In this document: piece by piece, positions 34,803-36,765 of the stretch
How positions within the stretch are numbered: position 1 is the first letter of the stretch
How the letters are laid out: each line of letters starts with the position of its first letter
Assembly: GCA_034005145.1 (NCBI GenBank)
Contig: JAVEVH010000001.1
Coordinates: 1,899-65,898 of the forward strand
DNA from: Candidatus Dojkabacteria bacterium
Lineage (GTDB): Bacteria; Patescibacteriota; Dojkabacteria; SC72
Reading direction: 5' to 3'
Length of the DNA: 64,000 bases
Made by a program: the position numbers and the translations under genes
The notes under the pieces: generated by a model
Database searches by the model: none
What the model was told of the DNA's origin: nothing
What the model saw: the letters and a program-made list of their open reading frames with translations, nothing else

Positions 34803-34876
34803 GTACTTGTAGCTCAATTGGATAGAGCATTGGTTTGCGGAACCAAAGGTTGACAGTTCGATTCTGTCCAAGTACA
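34803..34876 (+). tRNA. tRNA-Arg (anticodon GCG)
   Basis: Acceptor GUACUUG/CAAGUAC, D-arm GCTCAATTGGATAGAGC, anticodon stem TTGGT/ACCAA with loop UUGCGGA (U33, G37), T-arm GACAGTTCGATTCTGTC. 74 nt. Confidence 0.7.
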
Positions 34877-34879
34877 TAC

Positions 34880-34953
34880 GCACTCGTAGCTCAATTGGAT
34901 AGAGCATCGGTCTTCGGAACCGAGGGTTGAGGGTTCGACTCCTTCCGAGTGCA
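34880..34953 (+). tRNA. tRNA-Arg (anticodon UCG)
   Basis: Acceptor GCACUCG/CGAGUGC, same D-arm as the previous tRNA, anticodon loop CUUCGGA, T-arm GAGGGTTCGACTCCTTC. 74 nt, 3 nt after the previous tRNA. Confidence 0.75.
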
Positions 34954-34977
34954 AATTTAATATATACTTAAATATAT

Positions 34978-36765
34978 ATGATAGAGGTTAAGGAAAAGAT
35001 TGCTGAGAATTTACATTCAATTGTTAAAGAAATGGGTGTAGATATACAGGATATTGTTGTTCAAGAACCTACAGATATTGCTCATGGGGACTTAACATCT
35101 AATATCGCTATGCAGCTTTCAAAAGCTCTTAAATCTAACCCTATGGATATTGCAAGTAAGATTGTAGAAGCTTTTCCTAAAGATGAGGATATTGAGAGAG
35201 TGGAGGTTGTTAAACCTGGCTTTATCAATTTCTTCCTTTCAAATGGATATCTTTTAAATATGCTTAAGAGTATTAATACTCAAAAAGAGCAATATTTTGA
35301 ATTAGATATTAAAAAGGGTAAGAGGTATGTAATAGAGTATACAGATCCAAACCCTTTTAAAACACTTCATATTGGTCATCTATATACCAACATAGTAGGT
35401 GAATCATTCGCACGTCTTGTAGAGGCTCTAGGAGCTTGCGTCACTAGAGCAAACTATCAAGGAGACGTTGGCTTACATGTTGCTAAAACTATGTGGGGAT
35501 TACTTAAGATGTTTGAAGATGAGGGTATTACTTTTGAAGATTTAAAGAGTAAAACCTTAGTAGAAAGGGTAAGATACCTAGGTGATGCATATATGTTAGG
35601 TTTTAAAATGTATGATGATCAAAAGGATGAGAGCGTAATTAAGGATGTAAAAGATATTAACTACTACATATTTTCATTGTATATACCCTCTTTAGAAAAG
35701 AAAGAATATTTTAAGGATTTAGAGAGTAAAAAGCTTAAAGATATATATTTTGAGGGTAGGGATTGGTGTTTAGAGTATTTTGAAAGGATATATGAAAGAA
35801 CAGATACTAAGTTTGATAAATACTATCTAGAGAGTGAGATGGGTGAGAAGGGAATGGAGATTGTAGATGGGAATATGAATGGAAAAGGAAAGAATATTTT
35901 TAAGGCAAGTGATGGAGCAGTAATATATGAGGGTGATGAGAGTAAGGGACTCCATACTCGTGTCTTTATTAACAGTGAGGGTCTTCCTACATATGAGGCA
36001 AAGGAGTTGGCATTGGCTTTTAAGAAATTTGAACAGCTCTCATTTGATGAGTCAGTAGTAATTACGGCAGACGAGCAAAGCTCCTACTTCAAGGTCGTTT
36101 TAGATGCTCTTTCGCACTTAAGGCCAGAGGTTGCCAGTATATACAAACACTTCTCTCATGGCTTAGTTAGACTCCCAGGTGCAGAAAAAATGTCTAGTAG
36201 GAAGGGAAAGATATTGGAGGGAGAGTGGTTACTAGATGAAACTAAAAAAAGAGTTGAGGAGATGATGAGATCTAATCAGAAGTGGAGTGAGGAACAAATT
36301 TTAGAAGTAAGTGATTTAATAGCGGTTGCATCTATTAAGTACTCTTTCTTAAAAGTAACAGTTGGTAAGGATGTAATCTTTGATTTTGATAAAGCTACAA
36401 GCTTTGATGGAGACACAGGACCATATCTTTTATATGTTTATGCTCGATGTAACTCCATATTAGAGAGTGGTAAGGATAAAATATCACCGGAGAGCAGTGC
36501 CGAGTTAAATGCTTATACTAAAGAACTTCTTAGGGCAATTAGCAGGTACGATACCATACTGCTATCATCTGCTCTAACATATTCACCTAGCACACTTTGT
36601 TCATATCTCTTTGATTTAGGTCAAACATTTAATACCTTCTATACCAATGTAAGAGTTTTGGATTCAGAGAACAAAGAGTTCCTCTTAGGAGTAGTAGATG
36701 CTACTGCACAAACAATGAAACATGGTTTAGATGTATTGGGTATTAAGGTAGTAGAGAGAATGTAA
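34978..36765 (+). CDS. argS: Arginyl-tRNA synthetase
   Basis: Class I HIGH motif (KTLHIGHLYTNIVGE), Arg_tRNA_synt_N-like N-terminus, DALR anticodon-binding C-terminus. 595 aa. Confidence 0.9.
   Translation: MIEVKEKIAENLHSIVKEMGVDIQDIVVQEPTDIAHGDLTSNIAMQLSKALKSNPMDIASKIVEAFPKDEDIERVEVVKPGFINFFLSNGYLLNMLKSINTQKEQYFELDIKKGKRYVIEYTDPNPFKTLHIGHLYTNIVGESFARLVEALGACVTRANYQGDVGLHVAKTMWGLLKMFEDEGITFEDLKSKTLVERVRYLGDAYMLGFKMYDDQKDESVIKDVKDINYYIFSLYIPSLEKKEYFKDLESKKLKDIYFEGRDWCLEYFERIYERTDTKFDKYYLESEMGEKGMEIVDGNMNGKGKNIFKASDGAVIYEGDESKGLHTRVFINSEGLPTYEAKELALAFKKFEQLSFDESVVITADEQSSYFKVVLDALSHLRPEVASIYKHFSHGLVRLPGAEKMSSRKGKILEGEWLLDETKKRVEEMMRSNQKWSEEQILEVSDLIAVASIKYSFLKVTVGKDVIFDFDKATSFDGDTGPYLLYVYARCNSILESGKDKISPESSAELNAYTKELLRAISRYDTILLSSALTYSPSTLCSYLFDLGQTFNTFYTNVRVLDSENKEFLLGVVDATAQTMKHGLDVLGIKVVERM

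Follow-up and report, generated by a model that had tools for sequence, protein, structure and literature searches.

Two arginine tRNA genes upstream of argS

The subject of this analysis is a small gene cluster in a 64-kb window, i.e., a stretch of 64,000 nucleotides (nt) of contig JAVEVH010000001.1 from a Candidatus Dojkabacteria bacterium (positions are counted from its first letter). In this cluster, two genes encoding arginine tRNAs, with the anticodons GCG and UCG, lie directly upstream of argS, the gene for arginyl-tRNA synthetase (ArgRS). The gene of tRNA-Arg(GCG) occupies positions 34803-34876 of the + strand (these are the Rfam bounds; ARAGORN gives 34802-34877), and that of tRNA-Arg(UCG), which both programs detect, positions 34880-34953 of the same strand. 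Both correspond to full-length cloverleaves, with Rfam tRNA scores of 70.9 and 68.3 bits, respectively, for a gathering score of 29. Only three nucleotides (TAC) lie between the two genes, and the gap from the 3′ end of tRNA-Arg(UCG) to the ATG of argS at 34978 measures 24 nt. The first-pass annotation of this DNA had described the same arrangement, which ARAGORN, Rfam and the raw sequence confirm to the base; it had also assigned the anticodons GCG and UCG, and the loop UUGCGGA, from a hand fold with which ARAGORN agrees, the isotype being arginine. Read from the raw sequence, the anticodon loops are TTGCGGA in tRNA-Arg(GCG) and CTTCGGA in tRNA-Arg(UCG).

The argS gene (34978-36765, + strand) codes for a protein of 595 residues in which Pfam recognizes the three ArgRS domains: Arg_tRNA_synt_N (5.5e-25), tRNA-synt_1d (4.1e-31) and DALR_1 (1.8e-26). 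The N-terminal domain, which in characterised ArgRS touches the D-loop of the tRNA, is retained. The closest ArgS sequences among the GTDB species representatives are 65-90% identical and come from metagenome-assembled genomes labelled Candidatus Dojkabacteria, Patescibacteria group or Saccharibacteria, the last label being probably loosely applied. A look-up of the identical ArgS protein gave no record of it elsewhere. In one related locus (L007, from Dojkabacteria UBA2222), a frameshift splits argS (1297-3031) into two open reading frames (ORFs), which may reflect an assembly error or a pseudogene; this sequence was excluded from the ArgS alignment owing to the frameshift.

On the 3′ side, the last member of the cluster is tRNA-Pro(CGG) (36959-37032, + strand), detected by ARAGORN; the fast filters of Rfam overlook it, and it was recovered with 60.4 bits in a local search with laxer filters. 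A mini-ORF between argS and this tRNA (36789-36968, + strand) encodes a membrane peptide of 59 residues with a Pfam match to DUF1232 (7.8e-9), and its final 10 nt, stop codon included, overlap the 5′ end of tRNA-Pro(CGG). According to ARAGORN, the window has six tRNA genes. Those outside the cluster are a tandem of tRNA-Ala(CGC) and tRNA-Ala(GGC) (9244-9400) and a third arginine tRNA, tRNA-Arg(CCU), which reads AGG (48387-48460, + strand; 48386-48461 according to ARAGORN); the first-pass annotation had placed the latter at 48387, and both ARAGORN and Rfam (64.9 bits) find it there. None of the tRNA genes of the window encodes the terminal CCA.

The two clustered arginine tRNAs are identical at 60 of 74 positions (81%), and most of the remaining positions are paired substitutions in three stems (acceptor, anticodon and T). 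Both have A20, C35 and G36, and the D-arm which carries A20 is common to these two tRNAs and to tRNA-Arg(CCU). This is consistent with the three tRNA-Arg being paralogues that derive from a single arginine tRNA lineage. Each arginine tRNA is nearly invariant across the loci whose ArgS is 65-90% identical, with identical anticodon loops; two compensatory changes are seen in acceptor stems, one in the GCG tRNA of locus L006 and one in the UCG tRNA of locus L005. The loop UUGCGGA, with G at position 34 (G34), is invariant among 17 orthologues of tRNA-Arg(GCG).

The conservation of the cluster was examined in the GTDB species-representative loci and in 80 further metagenome loci obtained from a scan with the ArgS alignment. 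The GCG and UCG tRNAs lie upstream of argS in all six GTDB loci that have an upstream flank, and in all 11 metagenome loci that have such a flank and whose ArgS is at least 50% identical, which makes 17 of 17 loci. This pair adjoins argS in none of the 68 loci whose ArgS is at most 44% identical. Since the arrangement recurs in all 17 of these related loci, it is not a chance one, and the cluster is a clade-specific, very compact unit encoded on one strand.

Its members are not equally mobile. The distance between the 3′ end of tRNA-Arg(UCG) and the ATG of argS is 20-24 nt in every locus of the clade; the GCG copy is displaced by a further 70-600 nt upstream in six loci (L004, L006, L009, L012, L017 and L018). 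In the most divergent locus of the clade (L017, positions 3188-3965), whose ArgS is 50% identical, tRNA-Arg(GCG) comes first and is followed, after a gap of 520 nt, by tRNA-Pro(CGG), tRNA-Arg(UCG) and argS, so that tRNA-Pro is relocated upstream and tRNA-Arg(UCG) still adjoins argS. Otherwise, tRNA-Pro(CGG) is found downstream of argS in the loci of the clade, in the GTDB loci wherever the flank extends that far. This downstream region exists in two states: in eight loci (L005, L006, L011, L012, L015, L016, L018 and L019) the mini-ORF is absent and only 3-9 nt separate the argS stop codon from tRNA-Pro(CGG), while in seven others (the window, L001, L002, L004, L008, L013 and L014) this distance is about 190 nt and includes the 59-residue DUF1232 peptide.

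We found no description of a tRNA-Arg/argS operon in the searchable literature. The conserved cluster, together with the promoter layout discussed below, is a small new descriptive detail, and the remainder is ordinary for the lineage.

Reading of the CGN codons

According to the standard wobble rules, G34 pairs with C and U, and U34 pairs with at least A and G. tRNA-Arg(GCG) would decode CGC, and CGU as well through G:U wobble, while tRNA-Arg(UCG) would decode CGA and CGG; the CGN box would thus be handled like the other four-codon boxes of bacteria, requiring neither A34 nor its deamination to inosine (I34) by TadA. That the CGN box is read by these G34 and U34 arginine tRNAs, without inosine, and that their genes are clustered with argS, is the best explanation for the observations as a whole, and we consider that it is probably right. 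The first-pass annotation had proposed that the CGY codons are decoded with G34 and without inosine; this conclusion holds, as do its anticodon calls, with which ARAGORN and Rfam agree.

The annotation had contrasted this tRNA set with that of most bacteria, which use tRNA-Arg(ACG) and TadA. This general rule is well established: tRNA-Arg(ACG) is present and tRNA-Arg(GCG) absent, and the presence of the former correlates with that of tadA (PMC8007984). Bacteria of the candidate phyla radiation (CPR) appear to be without tRNA-Arg(ACG) and have the GCG tRNA plus UCG/CCG instead (Shulgina & Eddy 2021, eLife, PMC8629427); the same paper cites Rafels-Ybern 2019 for deep-branching bacteria that have no wobble inosine. 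The deduction about decoding is therefore sound but already known. The locus described here resembles the CPR repertoire in that tRNA-Arg(GCG) replaces the ACG isoacceptor, tRNA-Arg(UCG) covers CGA and CGG, and the genome is small and has a low GC content. It differs from what is reported in three respects: the window has no visible tRNA-Arg(CCG), the paper does not mention a linkage to argS, and, beside its general statement, it describes Absconditabacteria in which CGA and CGG are read as Trp, whereas CGA and CGU still mean arginine here.

Regarding precedents, the first-pass annotation had pointed to some Mollicutes. This is accurate for the Mycoplasma Pneumoniae group, in which a G34 tRNA-Arg(GCG) and a U34 tRNA-Arg(UCG) read the CGN codons and tadA is absent (Yokobori et al. 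2013, PMC3711424), and what has to be amended is that the trait was tied to Mollicutes only. In the Mollicutes it is a late state, derived stepwise in a phylum that contains TadA, unlike the CPR state, which appears to be lineage-wide. Reading of CGN without inosine is thus a published, lineage-wide trait of the CPR, and not merely a peculiarity of Mollicutes.

The data from the window, a small part of the genome, and from its relatives are compatible with this. A scan of the window and of 87 related loci, which amount to about 760 kb, gives no tRNA-Arg(ACG), the deaminase motif [HC]AE...PCxxC is found in none of the six frames of the window nor in 200 kb of loci of the clade, and no ORF of the window matches a deaminase family of Pfam. 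Furthermore, the loop UUGCGGA does not match YUACGAA, the motif recognized by TadA, at two places, 34 and 37: TadA substrates have A37, and tRNA-Arg(GCG) has G37. Our search for literature on tadA in Patescibacteria, or on the tRNA content of Dojkabacteria, returned nothing specific. On the basis of what is published about CPR bacteria, tRNA-Arg(ACG) and tadA are likely to be missing from the entire genome, as the first-pass annotation had suggested.

It may be, instead, that tRNA-Arg(GCG) is only a redundant isoacceptor, and that tRNA-Arg(ACG) and TadA are encoded elsewhere, inosine being used as in most bacteria. The fact that the inspection covered 64 kb leaves room for this, and TadA may be kept for other substrates, such as mRNAs. 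We nevertheless find it unlikely, since a given box generally has an A34 or a G34 isoacceptor but not both (PMC8007984), the ACG gene is reported to be lacking in CPR genomes (PMC8629427), none of the 87 related loci has it, and three tRNAs for CGN would be of little use in a small genome where, as counted below, CGN codons are so few.

A number of points weigh against the reading by G34 and U34 tRNAs encoded next to argS. The statement about CPR bacteria in PMC8629427 is itself hedged (tRNA-Arg(ACG) "appears to be lacking"). The negative results on tRNA-Arg(ACG) and tadA come from the 64-kb window, and about 90% or more of the genome lies outside it. CGC and CGG codons (3 and 2 occurrences, respectively) are too scarce for a meaning to be assigned to them. 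As to the clustering with argS, the same is true of three points presented in the next section, about the promoter-like boxes and about the neighbourhood of leuS.

Arginine codons were counted in 39 ORFs of the window, which total 20,153 codons. AGA (470) and AGG (211) are by far the most frequent, followed by CGT (29), CGA (18), CGC and CGG; the 52 CGN codons represent 7% of the arginine codons. Since most of them are CGT, the G34 tRNA would act mostly through G:U wobble.

Because CGA and CGG have been reassigned in another CPR lineage, the meaning of the CGN codons was checked by aligning the ORFs of the window with the related loci. CGA aligns with arginine in 44 of 44 cases within the clade and in 73 of 98 outside it, and never with Trp; for CGT, the figures are 72 of 81 and 139 of 147. 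AGA positions are far less conserved as arginine (75% within the clade, 29% outside). The argS gene itself has three CGN codons, for R146, R328 and R490, all of which are invariant in the ArgS alignment. CGU and CGA therefore mean arginine, and they are kept at old, constrained positions. We also observed that the rare CGT and CGA codons stand at much more conserved arginine positions than AGA and AGG, which looks like what is left of an earlier codon usage in a genome exposed to AT mutation pressure.

These alignments bear on the hypothesis that CGA and CGG, or all CGN codons, have been reassigned or left unassigned as in Absconditabacteria (where CGA and CGG mean Trp), in which case the UCG tRNA would not be an acceptor of arginine. 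The great rarity of CGN codons would suit this hypothesis, as would the fact that reassignment of arginine codons is known from another CPR lineage (PMC8629427). We consider it extremely improbable: CGA aligns with arginine, the UCG tRNA shows 81% identity with its GCG counterpart and has, as arginine tRNAs do, C35, G36 and a D-arm with A20, and its gene is physically linked to argS. A reassignment of the Absconditabacteria type was rejected for CGA and CGU on the grounds that these codons align with arginine and that the UCG tRNA has an arginine-type body.

The locus gives a sequence-level example, in Dojkabacteria, of the published CPR rule according to which CGN is read without inosine. This rule bears on the question whether TadA and I34 were present in the bacterial ancestor or were invented later. 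Nothing in our results overturns the current understanding.

Promoter-like boxes and linkage of the tRNA genes to argS

An extended -10-like box, TGATAAAAT (34783-34791, + strand), lies 11 nt before G1 of tRNA-Arg(GCG) and is a candidate promoter (P1). It is kept at the same place, as TG(A/G)TA(A/G)AAT, in 16 of the 16 loci whose ArgS is at least 64% identical. Taken by itself, the pattern TGRTARAAT shows no excess in the window (7 copies for 6.2 expected), so that the case for P1 rests on its conservation and on the analogy with TGNTATAMT boxes. The latter are depleted in the window (7 observed, 15.9 ± 3.3 expected), and each of the seven lies between genes, in the right orientation and at 5-74 nt from the gene or tRNA that follows it: 845-853, 2214-2222, 7841-7849, 48318-48326 (- strand), 48368-48376, 51671-51679 (- strand) and 51700-51708. 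Some are only 5-8 nt before an ATG. One of them, TGGTATAAT (48368-48376, + strand), lies 10 nt before the 5′ end of tRNA-Arg(CCU) and is analogous to P1. Such a distribution is what one would expect if these boxes were the promoters that the organism uses, and if its mRNAs had a short leader or none. The best site returned by a sigma-70 scan (GTGAAA-17-TATAAT, ending at 34802) was rejected as the promoter of the tRNAs, because its -10 element abuts position 1 of the tRNA and the start would fall within the tRNA; the conserved TGATAAAAT fits better.

A second candidate promoter (P2) is the -10-like hexamer TATACT (34963-34968, + strand), in the A/T-rich spacer of 24 nt, 9 nt before the ATG of argS. 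Among 18 orthologous spacers, 15 have kept TATACT, its distance to the ATG being 5-10 nt, and in eight relatives a TG extension precedes it. In the window itself, the argS box has no TG extension (ATATATACT), and more generally the promoter assignments consist of consensus matches and conservation; these are two of the points against mentioned above. No Shine–Dalgarno sequence is seen in the 24-nt spacer before argS, nor upstream of most other ORFs. It seems that this organism depends on mRNAs with a short leader or none. We note that the window encodes a four-domain S1 protein at 927-2168.

The layout is the one expected of a mixed tRNA-mRNA operon: the genes are on one strand, with gaps of 3 and 24 nt and no intrinsic terminator between them. 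No terminator-like site is found on the + strand in 33900-37800, a region that includes 34777-37032 and everything between the upstream comEC gene and tRNA-Pro. A well-known mixed tRNA-protein operon is thrU-tyrU-glyT-thrT-tufB of E. coli, in which, as here, tRNA genes lie directly upstream of a gene involved in translation, on one strand and with no terminator between, and where tRNA-processing nucleases would mature both. The present cluster departs from it in that the tRNAs are cognate to the synthetase, in that a tRNA follows the ORF by 3-9 nt in many relatives, and in that co-transcription is here presumed.

P1, with its extended -10 box 11 nt upstream of tRNA-Arg(GCG), most likely drives the transcription of the cluster, and the tRNAs would presumably be freed by processing of the RNase P and RNase Z type. 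The CCA would be added after processing, since none is encoded. For argS, expression from P2 as a near-leaderless mRNA is probable, either in addition to this or in its place. In our reading, transcription can continue through argS to tRNA-Pro; it would have to do so at least in the loci with a gap of 3-9 nt between the two, unless there is a promoter inside argS. Promoter activity, co-transcription and tRNA processing are all inferred here from sequence features. The clade-specific cluster and the layout with a promoter at the start codon and no Shine–Dalgarno sequence could help the annotation of CPR genomes, regarding gene starts, promoter prediction and tRNA maturation.

The first-pass annotation had viewed the two tRNAs and argS as substrate and enzyme in one unit. 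As far as the tight conserved cluster and the absence of a terminator-like site are concerned, this stands; the idea of cognate coupling is less secure, considering that argS has its own -10-like box and that tRNA-Ala genes precede leuS. The invariant juxtaposition of tRNA-Arg and argS is suggestive of cognate coupling. Against this, the tandem of tRNA-Ala(CGC) and tRNA-Ala(GGC) (9244-9399) lies 137 nt upstream of the non-cognate leuS (9537-11972), so that the adjacency of a tRNA and a synthetase gene may not mean cognate coupling. The prolyl-tRNA synthetase gene proS lies 6.7 kb from tRNA-Pro. Moreover, a layout in which promoters are placed at start codons accounts for the short distance between the tRNA and argS without invoking regulation. 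The gene pair pylT-pylS, which consists of a cognate tRNA and its synthetase and forms an orthogonal system for a non-canonical amino acid, offers another comparison: there too a tRNA gene adjoins the gene of its charging enzyme and both are inherited together, the difference being that the system described here is the standard, housekeeping one for arginine.

A T-box leader, which comprises a specifier loop, a T-box sequence and a terminator/antiterminator, takes up about 200-300 nt; it was considered and rejected, since there are 24 nt between the tRNA and the ATG. In 34600-37300, Rfam (E-values up to 1) recognizes neither a T-box nor any other cis-regulatory family, besides spurious matches derived from the tRNAs; the matches to YrlA (28.9 bits for a gathering score of 69) and Plastid-ycf2 over the tRNAs are such noise.

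It is known that the threonyl-tRNA synthetase of E. coli (ThrRS) controls its own expression by means of a tRNA mimic. A related mechanism, which would use a genuine tRNA instead, can be imagined here: tRNA-Arg(UCG) would be a cis element, to which ArgRS binds within the unprocessed precursor, thereby controlling the translation or the processing of argS, whose mRNA would be excised by tRNA punctuation. What makes this attractive is that the UCG tRNA is fixed 20-24 nt before the ATG in every locus of the clade, while the GCG copy and tRNA-Pro are movable, that tRNAs are present on both flanks of argS in the eight loci in which tRNA-Pro follows the stop codon by 3-9 nt, and that there is no terminator-like site. 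On the other hand, the spacer contains a conserved -10-like box, and most genes share the promoter-at-start layout, which explains the fixed distance; in addition, non-cognate tRNA-Ala genes precede leuS. We therefore regard autoregulation of this kind as improbable. By analogy with mitochondria, one may speculate that argS is tRNA-punctuated in this clade: RNase P and RNase Z would excise its mRNA from a precursor made up of the two tRNA-Arg, argS and tRNA-Pro, and tRNA-Arg(UCG), fixed about 20 nt before the start codon, would let ArgRS sense or bind this precursor; we give this idea little credence. Were it true, the level of the synthetase would be coupled to the availability of the rare tRNAs that read CGN.

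Other genes of the window

The G+C content of the window is about 34%. It contains a homologue of the large subunit of RuBisCO of form II/III type, an ORF of 5357 residues, and comEA together with a split comEC; the RuBisCO homologue, the 5357-residue ORF and the split comEC fit a CPR genome. With the closest ArgS sequences, they point to a source among the CPR/Patescibacteria, most likely in the Dojkabacteria (WS6). The giant ORF is a single one (12088-28161, + strand), which probably encodes a large surface protein typical of CPR genomes, and is followed by the gene of a 994-residue Laminin_G_3 protein (28074-31058).

The gene of the RuBisCO homologue (42388-43758) is followed by that of the prolyl-tRNA synthetase (ProRS) with a ProRS-C_1 domain (43703-45250). 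The longest ORFs of the two overlap by 56 nt, so that the GTG start of proS is probably placed too far upstream. Similarly, the longest ORF of a glycosyltransferase (48456-50102), with a GTG at 48456, overlaps the 3′ end of tRNA-Arg(CCU), and its true start is probably downstream of 48456.

Last, four ATP-grasp/RimK-like genes are found with a 7TM_transglut membrane protein in 53894-59689 (- strand), in a run adjoined by a gene for a MATCAP-like peptidase (52734-53897, + strand). The run of ATP-grasp/RimK-like genes may be a cluster for peptide ligation or poly-amino-acid modification.

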